From positions 1 to 52,997 of IMG/VR virus record IMGVR_UViG_2585427779_000013: a stretch of DNA of 52,997 bases. One strand, given 5' to 3'. How positions within the stretch are numbered: position 1 is the stretch's first letter; the number at the start of each line of letters is the position of its first letter. The notes under the pieces were generated by a model. The model had not been told where the DNA came from. It searched no databases and was given only the letters and a program-made list of their open reading frames with translations. Source of the DNA: a virus (Duplodnaviria; Heunggongvirae; Uroviricota; Caudoviricetes). This document shows positions 6,802-50,938 of the stretch, piece after piece. The position numbers and the translations under genes were made by a program.

Positions 6802-7107
6802 CTTGTTTTTCTCCTATGGTTAGAGTGAACGCGCGGGCGGGCATCCCATTAGCATTAGATAGCAGTGACTGACCGCTCAACAGATCCCGCCGTTGCGTGA
6901 TATTTGTTTTTCGCTTCGCAGCGACACCGGATTTTTAAAGAGCTTAAGGTAAGTGCCTTTTTGTGCCTTCCGTTATCTTTTTCCTTGCGTCTTTGCAAGT
7001 ATGGCCTTACCTTGTCTGCAAGTTTACAAAATGGAATTTTAAGATCAAGGCTTAAAATACACGTTTTGTGACTTGCATCAAACTTTTTGAGGTTATAGGG
7101 TAGCGAC
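6802..7107. promoter_or_regulatory. divergent immunity-region control region (candidate PR/PRM-like promoters and operators)
   Basis: 306-bp non-coding gap between divergent repressor and Cro-position gene; repeated half-site TGCAAGT at 6994-7000 and 7017-7023 and inverted as ACTTGCA at 7071-7077; inverted repeat AAGGTAAG/CTTACCTT; motif TTTACAAAATGG at 7023-7034. Confidence 0.5.
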
Positions 7108-7755
7108 ATGAAAACAAAATGGTATGACTTAGCAAAGCAGCTCATGCGGGCGCAGGGCATGAGTCAGGATTCACTCGCAGATCTCATGGGGATAACTAAA
7201 GGCGGCCTGTCACACTGGCTTAACGGTCGCCGCGAGCCAAATCTTGAAGATATTGCGCGGATTATGCGGGCGCTTGGGCGTCGTCAGTTCACTGTTACAC
7301 ATGATGGTATGGTCATTGATGATTCTGTTTCTAATACACTTCAGGCCGCACCGCCGCGTGATTTAGGTAGTTACCCGGTTATTGACTGGAAGGACACAGT
7401 AAACAATATGGATGACACAAGGCGATCAGCATTACCACACGTTACGACTAGCGTTATTTGTTCAGATGATAGTTACTGGCTGGTTGCCAAAGGTGAATCA
7501 ATGAACGCGCCGCAGGGGTTAAGCATCCCGGCGGGGACGATGATACTTGTTGACCCGCACGCGCCAGCTATTGACGGCAAACTGGTTATAGCCCAGCTTG
7601 AGGAAGGGCAGATACCGACGTTTAAACAGTTGATTATTGATGGAGGTCAAAGGCTTTTACGTTCGCTGAATCCGCTGTATCCGCCAATCCCTATGAATCC
7701 AGAATCAAAAATTATAGGCGTGGTGGTTGATGCGAAGATCGTAACCCTGCCATAA
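7108..7755 (+). CDS. CI-like phage repressor (HTH plus LexA/S24 peptidase domain)
   Basis: 215 aa; N-terminal XRE-type HTH; C-terminal S24 autoproteolysis motifs (AKGESM serine, TFKQL lysine). Confidence 0.85.
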   Translation: MKTKWYDLAKQLMRAQGMSQDSLADLMGITKGGLSHWLNGRREPNLEDIARIMRALGRRQFTVTHDGMVIDDSVSNTLQAAPPRDLGSYPVIDWKDTVNNMDDTRRSALPHVTTSVICSDDSYWLVAKGESMNAPQGLSIPAGTMILVDPHAPAIDGKLVIAQLEEGQIPTFKQLIIDGGQRLLRSLNPLYPPIPMNPESKIIGVVVDAKIVTLP

Positions 7756-7786: not shown

Positions 7787-7878
7787 CCTGGAAAACACCA
7801 AAACGTAAACAGAAAACGTTATTTATTATTTAAATATCAATGGTATATAAAATATTATAAAAAAGTATACAAAATGGA

Positions 7879-7907
7879 TTGACTCGGTGTTTTACGGGGC
7901 GTATATT
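7879..7907 (+). promoter_or_regulatory. candidate sigma70 promoter (PL-like)
   Basis: TTGACT (7879-7884), 17-bp spacer, TATATT (7902-7907); motif TATACAAAATGG ends 2 bp upstream of the -35. Confidence 0.45.
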
Positions 7908-36521: not shown

Positions 36522-36998
36522 ATGTCTCAGACTTGCGAAAAGGGCGCGTTTTTGGGCCGCGACGTGGCTGTATTCTTCGCTATCGCTTGTCCTAACGCGA
36601 AGCCGTTAGATGACGACTACAAAGCGTTAGGAATGATGCGCGGCAAAACGCTCTCAGTCGAATGGGAAACCGCAGACGCCACCGCTGATAAATCAGCAGA
36701 CTACACAAAAGAATCAATGGTTACTTACAAATCTGTTTCTTTCTCCGGCGATGGTGTATCGCGTACTGAAGCAATCCATAATCAGAAAGAACTGAAGCGT
36801 CACGTTATTAACCCTGGTGAAACAACCGGATCTCAGCCTTATGTGTGGCTTAAACTTGTTTCTCCGGTTGATGTAACTGAAGGTCCATTCCTTTGCACTT
36901 CCTTTAAAGAGGAAGACCCGAACGATGATGTCTCCACCTGGTCTATTGAGTGCTCAAGCGCTGGTAAGGTGACGGTTGGCGACATCCCAGCAGCATAA
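36522..36998 (+). CDS. major tail protein
   Basis: 158 aa; position before chaperone and tape measure genes; followed by terminator. Confidence 0.6.
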   Translation: MSQTCEKGAFLGRDVAVFFAIACPNAKPLDDDYKALGMMRGKTLSVEWETADATADKSADYTKESMVTYKSVSFSGDGVSRTEAIHNQKELKRHVINPGETTGSQPYVWLKLVSPVDVTEGPFLCTSFKEEDPNDDVSTWSIECSSAGKVTVGDIPAA

Positions 36999-37016: not shown

Positions 37017-37040
37017 GGGGCCGTTGGCCCCTTTCTTTTA
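37017..37040 (+). terminator. rho-independent terminator after major tail gene
   Basis: GGGGCC-GTT-GGCCCC followed by TTTCTTTTA. Confidence 0.7.
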
Positions 37041-37051
37041 GGGTGAAAACT

Positions 37052-37729
37052 ATGATTCATGTTCGAACAGGACAATTTGCGGCGGTGGTAGACGGCAGGC
37101 GGTATGTGTTTAATCCCTGTTTCGCTGCAATGGCTAAGATCGGTAGTGACAGAGAACTGGTCGAATACTTCGCAACCATCCACGGTGGCAAATATCCATC
37201 ACGATTGCCAGCAGATCCAGACCTACGCAATCGCATTCTGGCGCGGTGTTATGGTGAGATAGTGCAAACGTCAATACACATCCTGAAATGTTGCTCAGAA
37301 GACGAAATAGGCCCGTTATTGGGTGAATGTAGGTTTACTCCTTCCGGCAAATTGCGACTAAAACCCGGACTGATGCCGACCAGTGACGTTATCACGCTGG
37401 CGCAACATTGCATGTACCACGGCTTAATCGGTGACGGGCCGGAAGAAGACGCCGGAGAGATCCGGGAAGGGGAATATAAGCCTACTTTTAACGTGCTGGA
37501 ATTCGTTTATTCTGCCGTTGCTCACCTGGGCTTGTCAGAATCGGAAGCATGGAATATGACAATGACCGGATATAGGGCCGCTGTACGCGCTAAAACGCCG
37601 CCAGACGAAAGAAACGAGAGAAGCAAGCCAAACGTTCACATAAATAAACGTGCTTATGACGAGCAAATGGAGGTCGCTAAAAAGGCACTAGAAAGAATGA
37701 AAAATCGAGAGCAAGAAAAAGCCCGGTAG
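37052..37729 (+). CDS. putative tail assembly chaperone (225 aa)
   Basis: GGGTGA RBS, ATG 37052 (MIHVRTGQF); position between major tail and tape measure genes. Confidence 0.45.
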   Translation: MIHVRTGQFAAVVDGRRYVFNPCFAAMAKIGSDRELVEYFATIHGGKYPSRLPADPDLRNRILARCYGEIVQTSIHILKCCSEDEIGPLLGECRFTPSGKLRLKPGLMPTSDVITLAQHCMYHGLIGDGPEEDAGEIREGEYKPTFNVLEFVYSAVAHLGLSESEAWNMTMTGYRAAVRAKTPPDERNERSKPNVHINKRAYDEQMEVAKKALERMKNREQEKAR

Positions 37730-37745
37730 ATCCGGGCGTTTTTGT
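37716..37745. terminator. bidirectional terminator between chaperone gene and reverse-strand moron
   Basis: AAAAAGCCCGG-TAGAT-CCGGGCGTTTTT, A-run and T-run on either side. Confidence 0.7.
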
Positions 37746-37754
37746 TAAGTTCGC

Positions 37755-38075
37755 TTATGCTATTTTTTCGTAAAGCACATTCATCTGGGTGCGAATCACT
37801 GTTAATATATTGATTGCTGCGTTCTTATCAATGCGTTTATTCGCTACTATTTTTGTTTTCCCATCAATAACAACCAGATCTGCGTGCAATACATGGTTGA
37901 AGTTAATAATGTAATAATACTGTTTATCGCCAACATGTTGAACATATGCACCATTTAGATTTCCTTTATACCCACAATCACGCTCTGCGACACCGAAGTC
38001 AAATTCGCGGTTCATCTTGCGATTATATGCTACTTGTTTATGTTCCCATTTTCTCATCCATTCATCGCGCTTCAT
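37755..38075 (-). CDS. hypothetical moron protein (106 aa)
   Basis: Reverse-strand ORF inside tail cluster, coupled to upstream lipoprotein gene. Confidence 0.5.
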   Translation of the reverse strand: MKRDEWMRKWEHKQVAYNRKMNREFDFGVAERDCGYKGNLNGAYVQHVGDKQYYYIINFNHVLHADLVVIDGKTKIVANKRIDKNAAINILTVIRTQMNVLYEKIA

Positions 38076-38084
38076 GTTTCACCC

Positions 38085-38744
38085 TTAATTCCAGTTGCAA
38101 GCGTTTTTTACTTTGTCGATGTGGTTATAAAGACCATCAATGTTAAACACTGCTTTCTCAATGTCGCCAGCTTCCGGCACTACTTCAATGATGAATTGTT
38201 TTTCGTTAACCATTTTTTTAATCATTGGGATGGCTTTTTTGCCGTCCCATAATCCAAGAGCTTTATAATTAGTTGACCGTCCCCACTCAGTAGCTACAGC
38301 TTTGTGAACGCCGATCCGGTAGTTAATATAAGTAGTGTCCCCGGCGTCAGTTACATGGTGTGACCATGCTACGAACATTTTTGTTTTATTACCCTGGCAA
38401 GCGATTGTTAATACCGGTTTATTCTTATCCTGTGCCTTCAGTGTCGGGAAAGCATCAAGACTTCCGCTGAATTGTTCTGCTTTCACAAAAAGGAATACGT
38501 TTTTTGCGTCCTGCATATCATCTTTTCTTTCAACTACAAGCCACTGTTTACCAGCATTTTCTTTTTCTAACTGTGCATCGTATGCGGCTTGTTTTGCTTG
38601 TTGTTCTGCAAGCCATTTAGCATTTTTCTCTGCTAATGCTTGTTGTTCTTGATTGGTCACTATAGGCGCTTTTTCATTATCCTCATTGCAACCAACCAGA
38701 CCCAATACCGCCGCAATCATTGCCACTTTTGCTAACTGTTTCAT
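38085..38744 (-). CDS. moron lipoprotein (219 aa)
   Basis: Signal peptide with lipobox MKQLAKVAMIAAVLGLVGC; coiled-coil rich N-terminal region. Confidence 0.6.
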   Translation of the reverse strand: MKQLAKVAMIAAVLGLVGCNEDNEKAPIVTNQEQQALAEKNAKWLAEQQAKQAAYDAQLEKENAGKQWLVVERKDDMQDAKNVFLFVKAEQFSGSLDAFPTLKAQDKNKPVLTIACQGNKTKMFVAWSHHVTDAGDTTYINYRIGVHKAVATEWGRSTNYKALGLWDGKKAIPMIKKMVNEKQFIIEVVPEAGDIEKAVFNIDGLYNHIDKVKNACNWN

Positions 38745-39004
38745 AACCCACCACGCTTAGTTTTTATTTTTAAGTGATTTTAACATTTCTTCAATGAAAT
38801 CCGCATAGCGTTCATGTTCGTTGGGACGGTAGTTTACGTTTTTCATTTTCTTGTCCTCTTTTGCTTCCTCCGGTTTATCCGGTCCTTTTAAATCCCTTTA
38901 CTCTATCCATTTCCTTTAGCCTCTTTATACAAAATGTATTCGTTGAAGTGAAGCCATTTTGTATAAAATAGAGACATAGATCACATCTTGTATGAGGTTA
39001 AATC

Positions 39005-41350
39005 ATGGCTACCAGTGTAGGTACAATTTATTACGAAGTTGATGCAAAAACTGGTCAACTTCTCGTTGCACAACGACAGGCAGACCAGGCCTTTGACCGT
39101 ATAGAGCGCGGCGCAAAACAGGCTGACCGCCAGGTAAACACCCTGAAAACATCCATCAAGGCACTGACCAGGGTTATCCATTTGCTAATTGCTGCCGAGG
39201 CTGTGCGCCAATTTATGGATATGGCGGAGCAAGCAAAAATGCTTCGCGTAAAAATCAAAATGCTTACGGGCGATGCGGAGTCCGCTGGACGGGTTTTCGA
39301 CGGCCTGAAAGCAATATCCAGGGAAACGGGGCAAAGCCTGAAGGATACTGGCGAGCTATGGCAAGGTCTTGCCATCTCACTGAAGAACACGTCAGCTACG
39401 GAAGGGCAATTACTTAACCTGGTTGGCACTATTCAGAAAATGGGGGCGTTAGGCGGCGCATCAGCGGAACAGATGTCTAACTCTATGCGCCAGTTCCGCC
39501 AGTCTATAGACGGCGGCGTGCTGCGTGCTGAAGAATTTAACAGCCTACTTGAAAACACCCCGACCATCGTACAGACAATGGCCCGTCAGATGGGGTTATC
39601 TATGGGCCAGTTCCGCGCCGAAATGCTGGACGGCAAGATCACGGCAGAAAGGATGGTTAACGCAATCCAGGCGGCTACGCAGGAAACAAACGAGCAGTTT
39701 GCTCAGTTGCCGCGCACATCCGGCATGGCTATCAATGAGCTTAAAGTCGAAATCATGGGTCTTGTTGAACAGCTTGATGATCTTTTCGGCGTGTCAGATG
39801 GCGTAGTCTCAGCTATCGACTTAATCACAAAAGGCGTTAAGGGGTTAGGTGAGGGCGCTAAATTCGCTAAAACCTGCTTCGATACACTCAAAACGGCTGG
39901 TGGCGAATTCATCGACATGTTTGATGATGTGGCTGTGAAGGCTGGCGAGGTGGCAGAGAAGATCATCGCAATGGTGACGCCAATCAAGGCACTTATGGAC
40001 GCCTACAAATGGATGAAGGAGGTTGTAGATAAGCGCAAGGAAGAACTAAATAGCAACAATGAGAAGAAATTCGGCCCTACAGTCGGTAAAGTCATGACTT
40101 TTGCAAACGACATTAAAAACGCGACTGCCGCTTATGATGAGTTTATGCAGAAACAGGCAGAAGCCAACGACGGCAAGATCACCGGATTCGACAAGCCAGT
40201 TGATAAGCCTAAAAAGGGTAAGAAGACTGGCAGCAAGAAAAGCAAAGAGGATACGCTTGGTGACAAGGGTATAAGCGTTTCTGACCAGTACAATAAAGAC
40301 GCCGCCGCCATGCGCAAAGCGTTAGAGAACGGCAAGGCCATTGATGCTGCATTCGCCCAGGGTAAAATCACCCTCCTTGAGTACCGCGCCGCGCAAAAAG
40401 GGATAGGTAAGGAACTGAAGGAAGAATTAGCCCAAATTCCGGTAGATGAATTGCGTGATAAATGGGCGCAAATAGTAAGCCCGATGAATCAGCTTAAAGG
40501 CGAGGTTGACCCTATTCAGCAGGTACAAAATGAATGGGCCGTCCGTAAGCAAATGCTTATCGACCTGGGCGCTACCGAAGCGCAACAGAAACAGGCATTG
40601 TTAGCCTATGAGCAACAGATCCGCGATCTGAAATGGGAGCAATGGCAGGCGCAAAGCCAGACAAACGGCCTGATCGGTGATTGCGTTAATGGCCTTAAAG
40701 GTGGCATGAGCAATGCGCTTGTTGGCCTGCTTAACGGTACTCAATCATTGAGCGATGTTTTTGCTAACTTAGGGAGCAATATACTAGGGAATATTGGCAA
40801 CAGACTTTCTGATATAGCAGCCGACTGGATAGCAGATCAGATCATGATGGAAACACAAAGCAAGGCAACTCAAGCAAGTACAACGGCAAGCGCGGTTGCC
40901 GCTCAGGGAAGCATCGCGGCGGCGGCGGCCCCGGCGGCGGCGGCAACGGCTGCATCAACTGGCGGTAGCTGGGCGGCGGCTGGTTCGGCGGCGCTCACTG
41001 CGATCATGTCGCTGGCTACGTCAATTTTCGGCGGCGGTCGCTTTAATGGTGGTAGCGTCATTGGTGGCAATATGTACCGCGTAGGGGAACACAACAGGCC
41101 GGAGCTATTCCAGACGTCTAACGGCAACCAATATATGATCCCAGGCGAGAACGGCAGGGTTATTCCTGGTCGTGATATTGGTGGCGGTGGCGGTTTTAGT
41201 ATGCCTGTCAGTATCAGTATTCAAACCACAAACGGATTTAGCGAAGAAGACAGCCGCAGACTTGAATCAACAATGGAACGTGTAGCAATGAAGATGATAA
41301 CAAGGGAATCGCAAAGACCTGGCGGGATGTTGCAACCGCGCCGCAAATAA
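39005..41350 (+). CDS. tail tape measure protein
   Basis: 781 aa; long helical protein with Gly/Ala-rich C-terminal region; location and size typical. Confidence 0.85.
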   Translation: MATSVGTIYYEVDAKTGQLLVAQRQADQAFDRIERGAKQADRQVNTLKTSIKALTRVIHLLIAAEAVRQFMDMAEQAKMLRVKIKMLTGDAESAGRVFDGLKAISRETGQSLKDTGELWQGLAISLKNTSATEGQLLNLVGTIQKMGALGGASAEQMSNSMRQFRQSIDGGVLRAEEFNSLLENTPTIVQTMARQMGLSMGQFRAEMLDGKITAERMVNAIQAATQETNEQFAQLPRTSGMAINELKVEIMGLVEQLDDLFGVSDGVVSAIDLITKGVKGLGEGAKFAKTCFDTLKTAGGEFIDMFDDVAVKAGEVAEKIIAMVTPIKALMDAYKWMKEVVDKRKEELNSNNEKKFGPTVGKVMTFANDIKNATAAYDEFMQKQAEANDGKITGFDKPVDKPKKGKKTGSKKSKEDTLGDKGISVSDQYNKDAAAMRKALENGKAIDAAFAQGKITLLEYRAAQKGIGKELKEELAQIPVDELRDKWAQIVSPMNQLKGEVDPIQQVQNEWAVRKQMLIDLGATEAQQKQALLAYEQQIRDLKWEQWQAQSQTNGLIGDCVNGLKGGMSNALVGLLNGTQSLSDVFANLGSNILGNIGNRLSDIAADWIADQIMMETQSKATQASTTASAVAAQGSIAAAAAPAAAATAASTGGSWAAAGSAALTAIMSLATSIFGGGRFNGGSVIGGNMYRVGEHNRPELFQTSNGNQYMIPGENGRVIPGRDIGGGGGFSMPVSISIQTTNGFSEEDSRRLESTMERVAMKMITRESQRPGGMLQPRRK

Positions 41351-41354
41351 CACT

Positions 41355-41382
41355 AAGGCCGCTTATAGCGGCCTTTATTTTA
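41355..41382. terminator. bidirectional terminator after tape measure gene
   Basis: AGGCCGC-TTATA-GCGGCCT followed by TTATTTT. Confidence 0.7.
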
Positions 41383-41667
41383 CATGGTGAGAATATAAAT
41401 CAAACAGCACAGGAATACAGGTGCGGCGAAGTCGCAAACGCTAGCCATATTCCATGCTTTAGGTAATAATCCGCCATACCACGGCATTCTTTCCCGTTTT
41501 CCACCGCAAAATTCCGCTATGTAACGATATTCAGCCTGCGTGTGTTCCCGTGCAAAAAAGAATGTACATCCAATCAGGCCGCCAGTGAGATAATCACCAG
41601 TAAGCAGGCCGATAACAACCTGCATAGCCGCCGCAGCCAGTGCGTGACCAATGACGGTTAAATCCAT
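41380..41667 (-). CDS. moron membrane protein (95 aa)
   Basis: Three hydrophobic segments; reverse strand inside tail cluster. Confidence 0.5.
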   Translation of the reverse strand: MDLTVIGHALAAAAMQVVIGLLTGDYLTGGLIGCTFFFAREHTQAEYRYIAEFCGGKRERMPWYGGLLPKAWNMASVCDFAAPVFLCCLIYILTM

Positions 41668-41669
41668 TG

Positions 41670-41855
41670 TTAATCCTCCTGATCGTTCTCAAATGTGCCA
41701 TCTATAAATTTTTGAAGCCCGGCGATAAGTTGCGTCGCCTGCGATTTGTCAATTACGAGGGTGTCAGTCCCCATGAGTTCGGTTATCCATAGCCGACCAT
41801 CCTCATCAAGATCTAACCTAACTCCGTAACATAACTCTGTTTCGTCAATAATCAT
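41670..41855 (-). CDS. moron acidic small protein (61 aa)
   Basis: ORF 2 nt upstream of membrane protein gene (coupled pair). Confidence 0.45.
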   Translation of the reverse strand: MIIDETELCYGVRLDLDEDGRLWITELMGTDTLVIDKSQATQLIAGLQKFIDGTFENDQED

Positions 41856-41964
41856 TTTTCCTCCTATAATCTTCCGTTACGTGCTACGTAACCACTGCCG
41901 AACATCACCAACCAAATATTCCAGATCTCCCGCCAGGTGAATTTATCGTCCTCCATGTCCCACC

Positions 41965-42219
41965 TCACTTATGCACCCCTTTGACTCCACAGTGCCTGTT
42001 ATATTCCAGATGATCGATAATTAACCAGACTTTTAGGTCTTCGCTAAACAGCCTCCAGTCAGGGGTGATGTCGAATTTAAAGCCATAACCATCACGTAAC
42101 TTTTTGGGGCGCGCCTCTTTCTTCAAAAATGCTTTAAGCAGTTCCCTCCCTTTCTTGATAATCCTGTCTTGTGCGTTTTTCTGTACTTTCAGGTTTTTAT
42201 CAATCGCTACCAGTTTCAT
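41965..42219 (-). CDS. moron basic small protein (84 aa)
   Basis: Reverse-strand ORF. Confidence 0.45.
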   Translation of the reverse strand: MKLVAIDKNLKVQKNAQDRIIKKGRELLKAFLKKEARPKKLRDGYGFKFDITPDWRLFSEDLKVWLIIDHLEYNRHCGVKGVHK

Positions 42220-42236
42220 AACTCACCCCATCATCC

Positions 42237-42392
42237 TTAGTTGAGTGCCTTCAGGAAGAAATCACGGTATTCATCTTCTTTTGCATTCATCATGAATTGA
42301 CCGTATTTGAATGCGTCGTCGAAGCCCTTAACGATTGCTATTTCCACTTGTTCGAATGCGTTGTTCAGCATTACCACTACATAGCGTTTCAT
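42237..42392 (-). CDS. moron small protein (51 aa; possible N-terminal extension to 42467)
   Basis: ATG at 42392 has GGAGG RBS; an in-frame upstream ATG at 42467 lies inside the TTTACAAAATGG motif. Confidence 0.45.
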   Translation of the reverse strand: MKRYVVVMLNNAFEQVEIAIVKGFDDAFKYGQFMMNAKEDEYRDFFLKALN

Positions 42393-42560
42393 TTTTGGCC
42401 TCCTTCGTTGGTACTGCTTTTCTTCTTGCTTTCTATATACATCTTGTTGCGTACTATGTGAAGCCATTTTGTAAACTAGCTATAATCATTGTGATTAAGA
42501 TCTCATTTTTCGCGTAGAGGCGCGTAAAGATATATACAAAATGTAACTTATGGGGGTTTT

Positions 42561-43105: not shown

Positions 43106-43131
43106 AAAACACCCCGCCACGGCGGGGTTTA
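43104..43131. terminator. bidirectional terminator
   Basis: AAAAAAC-ACCCCGCC-ACG-GCGGGGT-TTAT. Confidence 0.65.
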
Positions 43132-43203
43132 TAGTGTCGATAGCAGAATGCATAACAATCCAATAATGATAATGATCATTTCCAGAACGTAATGTTCGCA
43201 CAT
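43129..43203 (-). CDS. very small hydrophobic peptide (24 aa, MCEHYVLEMIIIIIGLLCILLSTL)
   Basis: ATG 1 nt after upstream stop; overlaps terminator; speculative. Confidence 0.25.
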   Translation of the reverse strand: MCEHYVLEMIIIIIGLLCILLSTL

Positions 43204-43204
43204 C

Positions 43205-43453
43205 TCATAACGCCCCCTTCAAATATGTCAATCCCTTATCAGTGACGAATGAATGATTAACCTTGTTTTCATCCGTCATGATGATGAATAACTTTTCCTG
43301 CAAGTATTTTGCTTTCGGGTACAGCGTTAAGCAGACCTGGTATAAAATCCCGCGCTCAATCAGCAAATCAATAAATTCGTGTTCATGATAACCGACGAGG
43401 CGGGCGGCCTGTTTCAACGTGTACACATAATCACCGTGATTGCGCCGCCCCAT
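43205..43453 (-). CDS. moron protein with HTH-like segment (82 aa)
   Basis: TLKQAARLVGYHEHEFIDLLIERGIL resembles a DNA-binding helix-turn-helix. Confidence 0.45.
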   Translation of the reverse strand: MGRRNHGDYVYTLKQAARLVGYHEHEFIDLLIERGILYQVCLTLYPKAKYLQEKLFIIMTDENKVNHSFVTDKGLTYLKGAL

Positions 43454-43462
43454 GTTGTCGCC

Positions 43463-43810
43463 TTATTTATCGAACGCAGACAAATTGTCGATACAGAAAT
43501 CTTTTGCCGCTTTTTCGTATTCGCGTTTTGCTTGCGGATCGTCTGCCGGGAAACCTTTTGCGTGTATTTCACCAGGGCAAGACTGATCCATAGAATCAGC
43601 AAATTCAACATTGACGTTAAAGTTAATATCTTTCGGATTCATGTTTTCCACCTCATCAATTATCTGCACCGGATTAGCGGCATATTTCACTGGATGGCCT
43701 AAACTACATTCAAGAATCCTGCCTTCTTCCAGGGCTGCCTCTTCGCTATCAAATAATCCGAAACACTCCTTGCAACCACTTAACCACACATCAAGACTAT
43801 ATTTTTGCAT
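43463..43810 (-). CDS. moron protein (115 aa)
   Basis: Reverse-strand ORF, several Cys residues. Confidence 0.45.
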   Translation of the reverse strand: MQKYSLDVWLSGCKECFGLFDSEEAALEEGRILECSLGHPVKYAANPVQIIDEVENMNPKDINFNVNVEFADSMDQSCPGEIHAKGFPADDPQAKREYEKAAKDFCIDNLSAFDK

Positions 43811-43822
43811 TTCGTTAACCTC

Positions 43823-43978
43823 TCATTTGACAGGTTCGATTCTGTACCCCAAAACGCGTTCGTCTTCAGCGAGTAATAGCGCGTCAGTCAGTGCCTCGCC
43901 TTCGTCTTTATACAGAGCTACAGTCATTTCCCTGCCACCTGACAGGAATACCTTCAACCTCCACACCTTATCAGCCAT
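43823..43978 (-). CDS. moron small protein (51 aa)
   Basis: ATG 43978 with GGAGG RBS; in-frame upstream ATG at 43996 sits in motif CCATTTTGTTAA. Confidence 0.4.
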   Translation of the reverse strand: MADKVWRLKVFLSGGREMTVALYKDEGEALTDALLLAEDERVLGYRIEPVK

Positions 43979-44107
43979 CTCACACCTCCGCGCCATTTTG
44001 TTAACTGTGCTTCCGTTTGAGTAAAATATACATATTGTATAAACCGCGATCAATCCATTTTGGTATGATTTAGCGTGACGCAGATCACAAAATCAGAAGG
44101 TGAGAAA

Positions 44108-50482: not shown

Positions 50483-50515
50483 AAATAACCCCGCTTTGCG
50501 CGGGGTTTTCTTTTA
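50483..50515. terminator. bidirectional terminator after J
   Basis: AAAAATAA-CCCCGC-TTTGC-GCGGGG-TTTTCTTTT. Confidence 0.75.
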
Positions 50516-50761
50516 GTAGTTAGCTACACAATTCGACGGGCTACCGATGCGGCGCATATTGTGATCTAGTTCATGACACCATTGACCAGTATATGGAAGT
50601 TTTTCAGTGTCATAGACAAGATGACCATTAGCATCATAGACAATTTCTTGAGGAATTACTCCGCTATTTGGCAGGTTGTGCAATGCAGCATCTTTGTCAA
50701 CAGCACAACCAGTAAGAGCAACAGCCGCAGCGAATAATACCACTTTGAGCATGTTTTTCAT
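50513..50761 (-). CDS. small lipoprotein, candidate receptor-blocking superinfection exclusion protein (Cor/Llp-like)
   Basis: 82 aa; signal peptide with lipobox MKNMLKVVLFAAAVALTGC; reverse strand between J and tail fibre gene. Confidence 0.55.
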   Translation of the reverse strand: MKNMLKVVLFAAAVALTGCAVDKDAALHNLPNSGVIPQEIVYDANGHLVYDTEKLPYTGQWCHELDHNMRRIGSPSNCVANY

Positions 50762-50938
50762 TTTTGAATCCCCATTCTCGTTAGCTCGCCAGGTTCATCC
50801 GGTGGCTTAAATATCCGACAAAACAACATTTCGTATATTGATATAAATCAATAAATACATTTTGTATAAGCCAGAAATGTAACACAGATCACAAAATGGT
50901 AAAATTACCAGGTTAATTAACATAATGGAGTCATTGCG

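Follow-up and report, generated by a model that had tools for sequence, protein, structure and literature searches.

Why does a phage tail module carry a block of genes on the opposite strand, and what might their products do? The question arises in a mEp021-like (mEpimmI) temperate coliphage of E. coli, which we analysed as a window of 52,997 nucleotides (positions 1 to 52,997 of IMG/VR record IMGVR_UViG_2585427779_000013). The block lies between the plus-strand gene for a 228-aa DUF6246 protein (37043–37729; Pfam PF19759, 1.8e-55) and the plus-strand gene for the 781-aa tape measure protein (39005–41350; Pfam TMP_3 PF20155, 1.9e-49). The DUF6246 protein sits at the tail assembly chaperone position and, judged from that position, may act as the chaperone. 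The initial annotation described the block as a moron island, a lipoprotein gene and its partner with a possible exclusion, virulence or defence function in the lysogen. Our tentative reading is that the island is one allele of a hypervariable moron slot, present between the DUF6246 and tape measure genes of all mEp021-like phages, that would be expressed in the lysogen and serve superinfection exclusion at the level of the envelope.

Three reverse-strand genes within the tail module

Two of the island genes lie exactly where they had first been placed. TagO219 (38085–38744, minus strand) encodes a 219-aa lipoprotein, and X106 (37755–38075, minus strand), the last gene of the island, encodes an ORFan of 106 aa that lacks a signal peptide and is predicted to be cytoplasmic. 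Both correspond exactly to open reading frames and both are under purifying selection, with median dN/dS values across independent alleles of 0.21 for TagO219 and 0.24 for X106; they are therefore genes rather than chance open reading frames. A third gene had been overlooked. This gene, s29 (38757–38846, minus strand), is the first of the island and encodes a hydrophilic product of 29 aa (MKNVNYRPNEHERYADFIEEMLKSLKNKN) behind an AGAGGA Shine-Dalgarno sequence. It is annotated as gp84 in mEp515, is found in 32 of 54 related loci and is confined to mEpimmI phages, with a median dN/dS of 0.03 over 44 pairs; the mEp021 copy shows an in-frame codon indel. The GC content of the island is 0.37–0.42, compared with 0.45–0.55 in the flanks.

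TagO219 and X106 are separated by 9 nt (TAA GGGTGAAAC ATG) with an AGGGTG Shine-Dalgarno sequence. This tight spacing suggests the translational coupling that had been proposed for the pair but does not confirm it. Pairing of the s29 reading frame with the ribosome-binding site of the lipoprotein gene was also considered and was not significant. The tail operon around the island had been taken to be otherwise co-directional; it is not, with three more reverse-strand islands in the tail module at 41380–42467, 43205–43810 and 50513–50761.

A conserved frame around the island

On its 3′ side, the cassette is bounded by the predicted bidirectional intrinsic terminator that the initial annotation had reported at 37716–37745. 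It overlaps the stop codon of the DUF6246 gene, and its stem (37721–37737) has six G-C pairs with T runs on both strands. The hairpin is retained at 53 of the 54 related loci.

On the other side, the island and the divergent tape measure gene have a control region in common, which had been described as a motif-containing promoter region. The motif part stands: a perfect 13-nt inverted repeat (38924–38967) lies between the divergent genes, with arms TTTATACAAAATG (38924–38936) and CATTTTGTATAAA (38955–38967) separated by an 18-nt spacer. Both arms are perfect at 44 of the 54 related loci, and the spacer, invariant in length, occurs there in 18 different sequences. The promoter part is less clear, as a generic sigma-70 consensus scan called no promoter in this region. 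A plausible candidate for a minus-strand sigma-70 promoter lies inside the repeat (−35 TTCACT, 38952–38947; 17 nt; −10 TATAAA, 38929–38924). It matches at 9 of 12 positions, and other members of the family retain it. A search for a leader RNA element returned no Rfam family and a fold z-score of 0.26. The window contains the core CATTTTGTAT more often than chance would predict (22 matches, with 7.3 expected; 0 of 100 shuffles reach 22), and the motif is found again at the boundaries of the other reverse islands.

A slot with exchangeable cargo

Comparison with other phages shows that the island is an insertion. The gap between the DUF6246 and tape measure genes is 12–38 nt in distant DUF6246 phages, which have no insert, and 1279 nt here. 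Among the 54 related loci, defined by at least 70% identity, all 54 carry an island of 647–1,385 bp, in at least 15 gene arrangements with about 10 cargo families. Homology to mEp phages breaks off at window position ~38711, within the signal-peptide codons of TagO219. Nearly all cargo proteins are exported or located in the membrane: P138, P119 and P160 have Sec signals with ..NANA endings; TagO219, Y124 and Lipo245 have lipoboxes; and tm54 and tm107 belong to the membrane group. Cargo type does not strictly follow the tape measure allele. The slot is not discussed in the paper describing the mEpimmI phages (PMC11893012), which a survey found to be common in the human gut.

The lipoprotein and the 106-aa protein had been presented as partners, but they assort independently among the 54 related genomes. 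The neighbour of TagO in 19 loci is X106 in 7, the lipoprotein Y124 in 11 and neither in 1, and in 4 of 11 loci X106 stands behind the unrelated periplasmic protein P160. X106 is always downstream of an exported protein. The moron description itself holds up, in that the island is extra DNA of lower GC content, has its own terminator, varies among close relatives and occupies the slot of HK97 gene 15; the description as a two-gene unit does not. The cassette is a fairly ordinary moron at the classic spot and probably serves the prophage to alter or protect the host envelope.

TagO219 is a predicted lipoprotein with a VasI domain

The first assignment of TagO219 as a lipoprotein is borne out by sequence prediction. 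The signal peptide ends in a lipobox (LVGC; MKQLAKVAMIAAVLGLVG preceding Cys19) that is invariant in homologs, with G15, L16, G18 and C19 unchanged among 12 of them. Asn at position +2 points to a probable anchor in the outer membrane; the membrane of residence is uncertain because alleles differ at this residue (N, R, G, D or E). The mature protein consists of a disordered linker (residues 20–30), a helix (31–63) and a VasI/IalB-like beta-sandwich (65–219) with conserved Cys116 and Cys216. What had been described as a coiled-coil N-terminal half therefore comes down to one predicted helix of about 33 residues with a weak heptad pattern.

Nor is the protein without a family. It matches the Pfam VasI/TagO domain (PF11319) with 57.9 bits against a gathering score of 26.5, residues 55–218 aligning to profile positions 25–184 of 184, and the domain has an IalB-like beta-sandwich fold. 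Similarity to IalB (PDB 3dtd) amounts to only 7% sequence identity with no match to the Pfam IalB family, and the biology of IalB, alphaproteobacterial erythrocyte invasion, offers no transferable mechanism. A PDB sequence search gave no match, a second, profile-based homolog search yielded fragments only, and a fold search of BFVD returned only uncharacterised phage proteins. All close homologs of TagO219 are located in the same phage slot or one nearby. More widely, phage-borne proteins of the VasI/TagO fold occur in this E. coli clade, in P2-like phages of E. coli, Klebsiella and Citrobacter, and in Pasteurella, Brucella and Labrenzia phages.

The domain raises the alternative that the island has a role in type VI secretion (T6SS), with TagO219 substituting for or interfering with a T6SS accessory protein of the host, or shielding the lysogen from the T6SS of its neighbours. 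VasI domains occur in T6SS clusters, where in Vibrio the gene is flanked by vasH and tssA (PMC5371669), and PGAP names the TagO219-type protein ‘type VI secretion system-associated protein TagO’. Like T6SS TagO/VasI proteins (VCA0118 family; PF11319, TIGR03360), TagO219 has a beta-rich C-terminal domain and predicted export. A C-terminal Cys...AC(N/H)W motif is conserved among the phage-encoded VasI-family homologs compared, and phage tails and the T6SS are homologous injectors. However, the score against the NCBIfam equivalog TIGR03360 is 45.8 bits, well below the cut-off of 124.2; TagO219 is surrounded by genes for the tail tube, DUF6246, tape measure and minor tail proteins, and no T6SS gene lies close by; and in place of the Cys-containing N-terminal RLxCYD motifs found in other VasI-like proteins it has a Gln/Ala/Lys helix together with a lipid anchor. 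Because the gene falls below the equivalog cut-off, outside a T6SS cluster and with a lipid-anchored, altered N terminus, the RefSeq/PGAP name is over-specific for these prophage genes. Sibling phages, moreover, fill the slot with unrelated periplasmic proteins. The VasI domain also gives no mechanism, since the function of T6SS TagO/VasI is itself listed as ‘unknown’ (PMC13584744), the only statement that we found in literature on VasI/TagO function or on phage-borne VasI. We consider a T6SS role unlikely.

Comparison with known exclusion systems

Our best guess for TagO219 is a lysogen-expressed envelope protein that hinders injection by incoming phages or tail-like machines. Several comparisons are consistent with this reading and with the wider one of envelope-level exclusion.

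First, the slot is that of the original moron, HK97 gene 15, a prophage-expressed superinfection exclusion gene that blocks genome injection (Juhala et al. 2000; Cumby et al. 2012; PMC3594210). It likewise has the tail chaperone on one side and the tape measure gene on the other (HK97 order gp13/14, gp15, gp16), is extra DNA with its own terminator, and has an envelope-located product, as predicted for TagO219. By contrast, HK97 gene 15 is a single gene on the tail-gene strand for a 62-aa YebO-like inner-membrane protein; the island has three genes, all opposite in direction to the tail genes, and its main product, TagO219, is a VasI-domain lipoprotein of 219 aa.

Second, one of the other reverse islands (50513–50761) encodes a type-C Lpp exclusion lipoprotein homolog, 91.5% identical to that of mEp010. 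Lpp exclusion lipoproteins, which stand alongside the receptor blockers of the Cor/Llp type, have been experimentally validated in mEpimmI phages (mEp021 gp81 and mEp010 gp116; PMC11893012). The Lpp island has the same design as the slot, a terminator followed by a reverse gene and then the motif, and in both cases a phage of this family encodes a lipoprotein in reverse orientation among its structural genes. Unlike TagO219, Lpp proteins have 72–82 aa and are located after gene J. The Lpp gene also carries an argument in the other direction: because the phage already has a receptor-level Lpp of a validated type, a second exclusion function would be unneeded.

Third, phi80 encodes TaiEcA in reverse within its late operon; the gene is expressed constitutively in the lysogen, and Q-driven transcription lowers that expression (a ‘noncontiguous operon’; PMC11364771). 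The island resembles TaiEcA/AtiEcA in breaking into a late operon with divergent genes; it differs in that phi80 Tai targets tail assembly within the cytoplasm, and TagO219 is predicted to be exported.

Fourth, VasI-like genes in other temperate settings lie directly downstream of a CI-like repressor gene in the same orientation (Brucella phage BiPBO1), near CI (a Labrenzia phage) or at the prophage end (a P2-like phage). From these CI-adjacent homologs, the phi80 Tai precedent and the Lpp-island architecture we infer that the island may be expressed in the lysogen and may act in exclusion or defence.

Sequence similarity to the exclusion and defence proteins compared was not found, which stands against the exclusion reading. 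TagO219 was set against HK97 gp15, Lpp types A and C and TaiEcA, and X106 against HK97 gp15, TaiEcA and AtiEcA. Neither protein is similar to HK97 gp15; TagO219 gave no significant alignment past the signal peptide with mEp021 gp81 or the type-C Lpp of the window; and BLASTP against TaiEcA/AtiEcA gave E values of 0.92 or worse, or no alignment.

The slot runs backwards out of the conserved divergent control region to the conserved bidirectional terminator. The control region, the optional s29 and the first ~11 signal-peptide codons make up a conserved 5′ module, downstream of which alternative cargo genes have been exchanged by recombination. In an exclusion mechanism of the kind proposed, the island would be transcribed in the lysogen from its own promoter, and TagO219 would be exported, acylated and anchored in the membrane, with the linker and the 33-residue helix keeping the beta-sandwich periplasmic. 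In that compartment the domain may disturb the passage of incoming phages or other tail-like injectors across the envelope, and the outcome would be superinfection exclusion after adsorption, as for the HK97 gene in the same slot. Upon induction, antiterminated late transcription through the terminator, antisense to the island, should damp its expression, following the logic of phi80 TaiEcA.

Alternative roles for the island

The motif CATTTTGTAT is present ahead of tail genes on the plus strand as well, at 38955 (tape measure), 44031 (L) and 50858 (last tail gene), and therefore the island could be co-regulated with the late genes rather than expressed in the lysogen. The divergent control region, which also serves the tape measure side, fits such timing. 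T5 Llp stops injection by progeny into debris or into cells that are lysing, and an island co-expressed with the tail genes might likewise block progeny injection or might aid envelope events at lysis. Against this, the island genes are accessory and interchangeable among siblings, homologs stand beside repressor genes in other phages, and late transcription would run antisense to the island. A spanin reading of TagO219 was rejected, as the protein has no C-terminal transmembrane domain, its gene is accessory and the match to phrog_812 reaches only E 0.087. A lytic-cycle role is, in our judgement, quite unlikely.

Conversion of the host would place the effect of TagO219 outside phage infection altogether, in adhesion, invasion or serum resistance. 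Lambda Bor and Lom and Bartonella IalB are models for host-interaction conversion factors. Carriers of the TagO219-type gene include human, STEC and food isolates, and lipoprotein morons such as Bor provide a precedent (PMC3594210). Weighing against a contribution to host fitness or virulence, the mechanism of IalB is unclear and its sequence identity to TagO219 minimal, the alternative cargos are diverse small periplasmic proteins without a virulence signature, and the gene is rare, occurring in ~20 of 5,426 complete E. coli genomes. Virulence conversion seems to us decidedly improbable.

X106 gave little to build on. It had no significant match in Pfam, NCBIfam, PADLOC or PDB sequence searches, and TagO219 likewise has no match in PADLOC. 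In PHROGs, X106 reached only phrog_33343, at E 0.04, and tblastn against 50,697 phage records gave chance matches only (E 0.3). A word-indexed search of 5.8 billion proteins returned three clusters, and an exhaustive profile search of 1.84 billion representatives found only the cluster of X106 itself and P0018. The latter is an artefact, a repetitive, out-of-frame-looking translation of 4,834 aa whose score sums 46 weak stretches. A two-component system of the abortive-infection or toxin-immunity type, in which TagO219 as envelope sensor and X106 as cytoplasmic effector or antidote would function only together, could draw on the 9-nt spacing, the common transcription unit and the constant place of X106 behind an exported protein, but with TagO lacking X106 in 12 of 19 loci, X106 behind P160 in 4 of 11, no toxin, nuclease, PADLOC or Pfam signatures and no similarity to the phi80 Tai/Ati pair, it is highly improbable.

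Implications

If TagO219, as the envelope-level exclusion reading would have it, blocks the entry of phages or other injectors, it would add a new fold to the few post-adsorption exclusion mechanisms and offer, for the first time, a functional approach to the VasI/TagO family. A bolder and very unlikely extension is that phage proteins of the VasI/TagO fold are widespread, unrecognised ‘periplasmic shields’ that either bind the tip or tape-measure apparatus of incoming tail-like injectors or send it off course. Were this true, the TagO/VasI proteins of the T6SS would have a related job at the envelope of the producer, in spike handling or as a guard against friendly fire; the slot beside the tape measure gene would be an arms-race locus; and new envelope effectors could be fitted in by way of the conserved 29-aa peptide and the signal-peptide ‘adapter’.

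Whatever the function, mEpimmI phages keep a plug-and-play slot in which exported proteins are swapped while the control region, the 29-aa gene where present and the start of the signal peptide stay the same. The slot is thus a compact natural library of about ten candidate envelope-acting proteins that can be screened together.

Gene content of the island

The region derives from a temperate siphophage of the mEp021/'mEpimmI' group of E. coli, described in PMC11893012; among GenBank phages, only mEp010, mEp021, mEp044, mEp515, mEp554 and MagusPhagus share DNA similarity with it. The island, with a GC content of 0.37-0.42 versus 0.45-0.55 outside, lies beyond the genes for the tail tube protein (36522-36998) and a DUF6246 protein (37043-37729) and before that for the tape measure protein (39005-41350). 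A G+C-rich hairpin with a T run (GGGGCCGTTGGCCCC TTTCTTTT, 37017-37031) separates the tail tube gene from DUF6246; it is an annotated terminator in mEp021 and mEp515 too, and the ratio of tube to downstream products could be set there.

The anatomy proposed in the initial annotation is real and slightly richer than first described. Both listed reading frames, for a 219-aa lipoprotein (TagO219, 38085-38744, minus strand) and a 106-aa protein (X106, 37755-38075, minus strand), are present, as is the terminator at the island's end (stem 37721-37737), which was detected in both orientations and has T runs on both strands. Median pairwise dN/dS values (lipoprotein, 0.21; 106-aa gene, 0.24) show that both are protein-coding. 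A third frame of 29 codons, s29 (38757-38846, minus strand), had gone unnoticed. mEp515 carries an annotation for it, and it is confined to mEpimmI phages; 32 of 54 related loci have it, the other 22 showing a clean deletion of about 135 bp. No other gene of the island is as constrained as s29 (median dN/dS about 0.03): compared with mEp021, 11 of its codons differ synonymously and 4 non-synonymously, and there is an in-frame codon indel. The hydrophilic peptide is a candidate small regulatory protein.

TagO219 begins with MKQLAKVAMIAAVLGLVG followed by C; its lipobox residues are invariant across 12 homologs. The protein scores above threshold against Pfam VasI (PF11319) and matches phrog_1848, a family of unknown function, at 1e-57. 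In the AlphaFold2 model (pLDDT 76) the lipid-anchored Cys leads into a disordered segment, which gives way to a single long helix (31-63) and then to a beta-rich domain (69-215). Phage homologs with as little as 25% identity still conserve Cys116 and Cys216, which suggests a periplasmic disulfide.

The X106 start codon lies 9 nt past the lipoprotein stop and is preceded by an AGGGTG Shine-Dalgarno sequence. We found no signal peptide, family or convincing fold match for this protein, and its homologs form only three clusters among 5.8 billion proteins. An exhaustive profile search added nothing but one artefact, P0018, a 4834-aa database 'protein' of about 46 near-identical G/V/A/D-rich repeats that probably results from reading a repetitive adhesin-like gene in the wrong frame. 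We rejected it as a homolog because its profile score of 1.9e-38 came only from summed weak stretches, a warning on false positives driven by repeats.

Cassette exchange between DUF6246 and the tape measure gene

We measured the interval from DUF6246 to the tape measure gene in 76 IMG/VR loci fetched via the DUF6246 protein, plus prophage loci from other searches. Phages whose DUF6246 is 31-41% identical mostly have 12-38 nt between the two genes, whereas a reverse-strand insert of 647-1385 bp is present in each of the 54 relatives at 70% identity or more. Clustering of the encoded ORFs gave cargo families that occur in 15 combinations: s29 (32 loci), TagO219 (19), P138, a periplasmic protein of the mEp021 gp63 type (16), the lipoprotein Y124 (16), X106 (11), the membrane pair tm54 and tm107 (9), P119 (6), P160 (5) and a 245-aa lipoprotein (1). 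For the other cargo proteins no known family was found, except for a weak BamE-like match for Y124.

The first cargo gene has a nearly constant start, MK(R/Q/S)LAK, and alleles are homologous in DNA from the control region through roughly its first 11 codons, beyond which the homology ends, so that the 5′ recombination junction falls within the codons for the signal peptide. On the 3′ side the junction is the terminator, which 53 of 54 loci retain. The slot is a swap site. The two genes had also been taken for a pair, and a true two-component system would be the corresponding rival reading; TagO219, however, is followed by X106 in 7 loci, by Y124 in 11 and by nothing in 1, and X106 also stands directly behind P160 in 4, so the two are not a dedicated pair.

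The control region and its motif

The stretch that separates the island from the tape measure gene contains a repeat consisting of TTTATACAAAATG, 18 nt and CATTTTGTATAAA. In 44 of 54 loci neither arm has a mismatch, and the spacer is always 18 nt yet has 18 different sequences, an arrangement consistent with either a site bound by a protein or a pair of promoter elements. A plausible promoter on the minus strand (TTCACT, 17 nt, TATAAA) would take its -10 from one of the arms; a generic promoter scan did not call it. For the leader, no Rfam family was found and RNA structure was not significant.

The core CATTTTGTAT has 22 matches in the window at up to one mismatch versus 7.3 expected, a count reached by 0 of 100 shuffles, and AGATCACA is also over-represented (7 versus 1.2 expected). 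The sites, for example at 7867, 8546, 15968, 22706, 38927, 38955, 42534, 44031 and 50858, cluster at divergent intergenic regions. The core recurs before plus-strand tail genes and adjoins the -35 of a strong promoter just past the repressor gene (TTGACT-17-TATATT, approximately 7877-7905). That gene (7108-7755, plus strand), in the immunity region, encodes a CI/LexA-like repressor with, as judged by eye, an HTH and an S24-type C-terminal domain; CATTTTGT-like motifs occur at 7024-7033 (upstream of it), 7112-7121 (spanning its start codon) and 7867-7876 (downstream). Separately, a perfect 12-nt palindrome, TTTTGTACAAAA within TATTTTGTACAAAATC (1015-1030), is like the tail-module motif but self-complementary.

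Further reverse-strand islands

Contrary to what had been supposed, the tail module is not otherwise co-directional: it holds three further reverse-strand islands, with the core motif at their boundaries, and a unit of plus-strand block, bidirectional terminator, reverse island and motif region is repeated four times. Two islands, within 41355-42560 and 43111-44075, each begin at a terminator. The former (41380-42467) encodes a 95-aa membrane-like protein, a 61-aa protein, a protein with a ParE-like toxin domain (41965-42219; PF24732 at 4e-11) and a 76-aa protein; the latter encodes a 115-aa protein and one with an ANT/KilAC domain (43205-43453). The fourth island has a bidirectional terminator (50487-50507) on one side and a CATTTTGTAT motif region (50827-50898) on the other, and encodes an 82-aa lipoprotein (MKNMLKVVLFAAAVALTGC..., 50513-50761, minus strand) 91.5% identical to that of mEp010. 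The mEp010 'type-C Lpp' experimentally excludes LamB-dependent mEp phages and lambda (PMC11893012). The family's known exclusion lipoprotein is thus a gene other than TagO219, and this phage carries that one too.

Relatives elsewhere and possible function

Of 50,697 GenBank phage records, 24 encode VasI-like proteins (27-33% identity), and the carriers that can be identified are temperate: P2-like phages, prophage-derived Klebsiella records, and CI-repressor-bearing Brucella and Labrenzia phages. The gene follows a CI-like repressor in the same orientation in Brucella phage BiPBO1, lies by immunity genes in the Labrenzia phage and is found next to a hok-like gene where the prophage of a P2-like E. 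coli phage ends, positions that are classic for lysogen-expressed genes. In one record, Escherichia phage 500465-2 (NC_049343; 3855-6582 of the fetched locus), the host genes flk, an MFS transporter and fabB lie past the VasI-like gene; the record probably runs past the prophage end. In a related phage (locus L089, 5001-6144), a reverse-oriented gene for a 54%-identical VasI-like lipoprotein lies on the other side of DUF6246, and is therefore the same cargo at a neighbouring insertion point. In that phage DUF6246 overlaps the tape measure gene, and the VasI-like gene is followed by those for 48-aa and 103-aa acidic proteins dissimilar to X106 by eye.

The island occupies the slot of HK97 gene 15, the element that gave rise to the term 'moron'; the HK97 protein is expressed from the prophage, resides in the inner membrane and prevents genome injection (PMC3594210). 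phi80 TaiEcA is a reverse gene in a late operon, lysogen-expressed and damped by late transcription (PMC11364771). Neither TagO219 nor X106 resembles HK97 gp15 or TaiEcA, X106 (the only island protein compared) has no similarity to AtiEcA, TagO219 (likewise the only one compared) has none to the tested Lpp proteins, and PADLOC gave no match for the island proteins.

The comparative evidence supports the moron interpretation well. As to function, a lysogen-expressed envelope role of the exclusion type is a tentative reading to which we give slightly less than an even chance: the lysogen would express the envelope lipoprotein, its VasI-fold domain would be held in the periplasm, and there it would interfere with incoming injection. 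A T6SS-related role is a rival. RefSeq names the protein in E. coli prophages 'type VI secretion system-associated protein TagO'; its score against the NCBIfam equivalog TIGR03360 is only 45.8 bits, below the cut-off of 124.2. A virulence or fitness role and a late-cycle role are further alternatives to exclusion.

The function of TagO/VasI is given as unknown in a 2026 review (PMC13584744). Three features stand out: the plug-and-play architecture anchored in the signal peptide, the extremely constrained 29-aa gene, and the opportunity that the island offers to find out what the VasI/TagO fold does.
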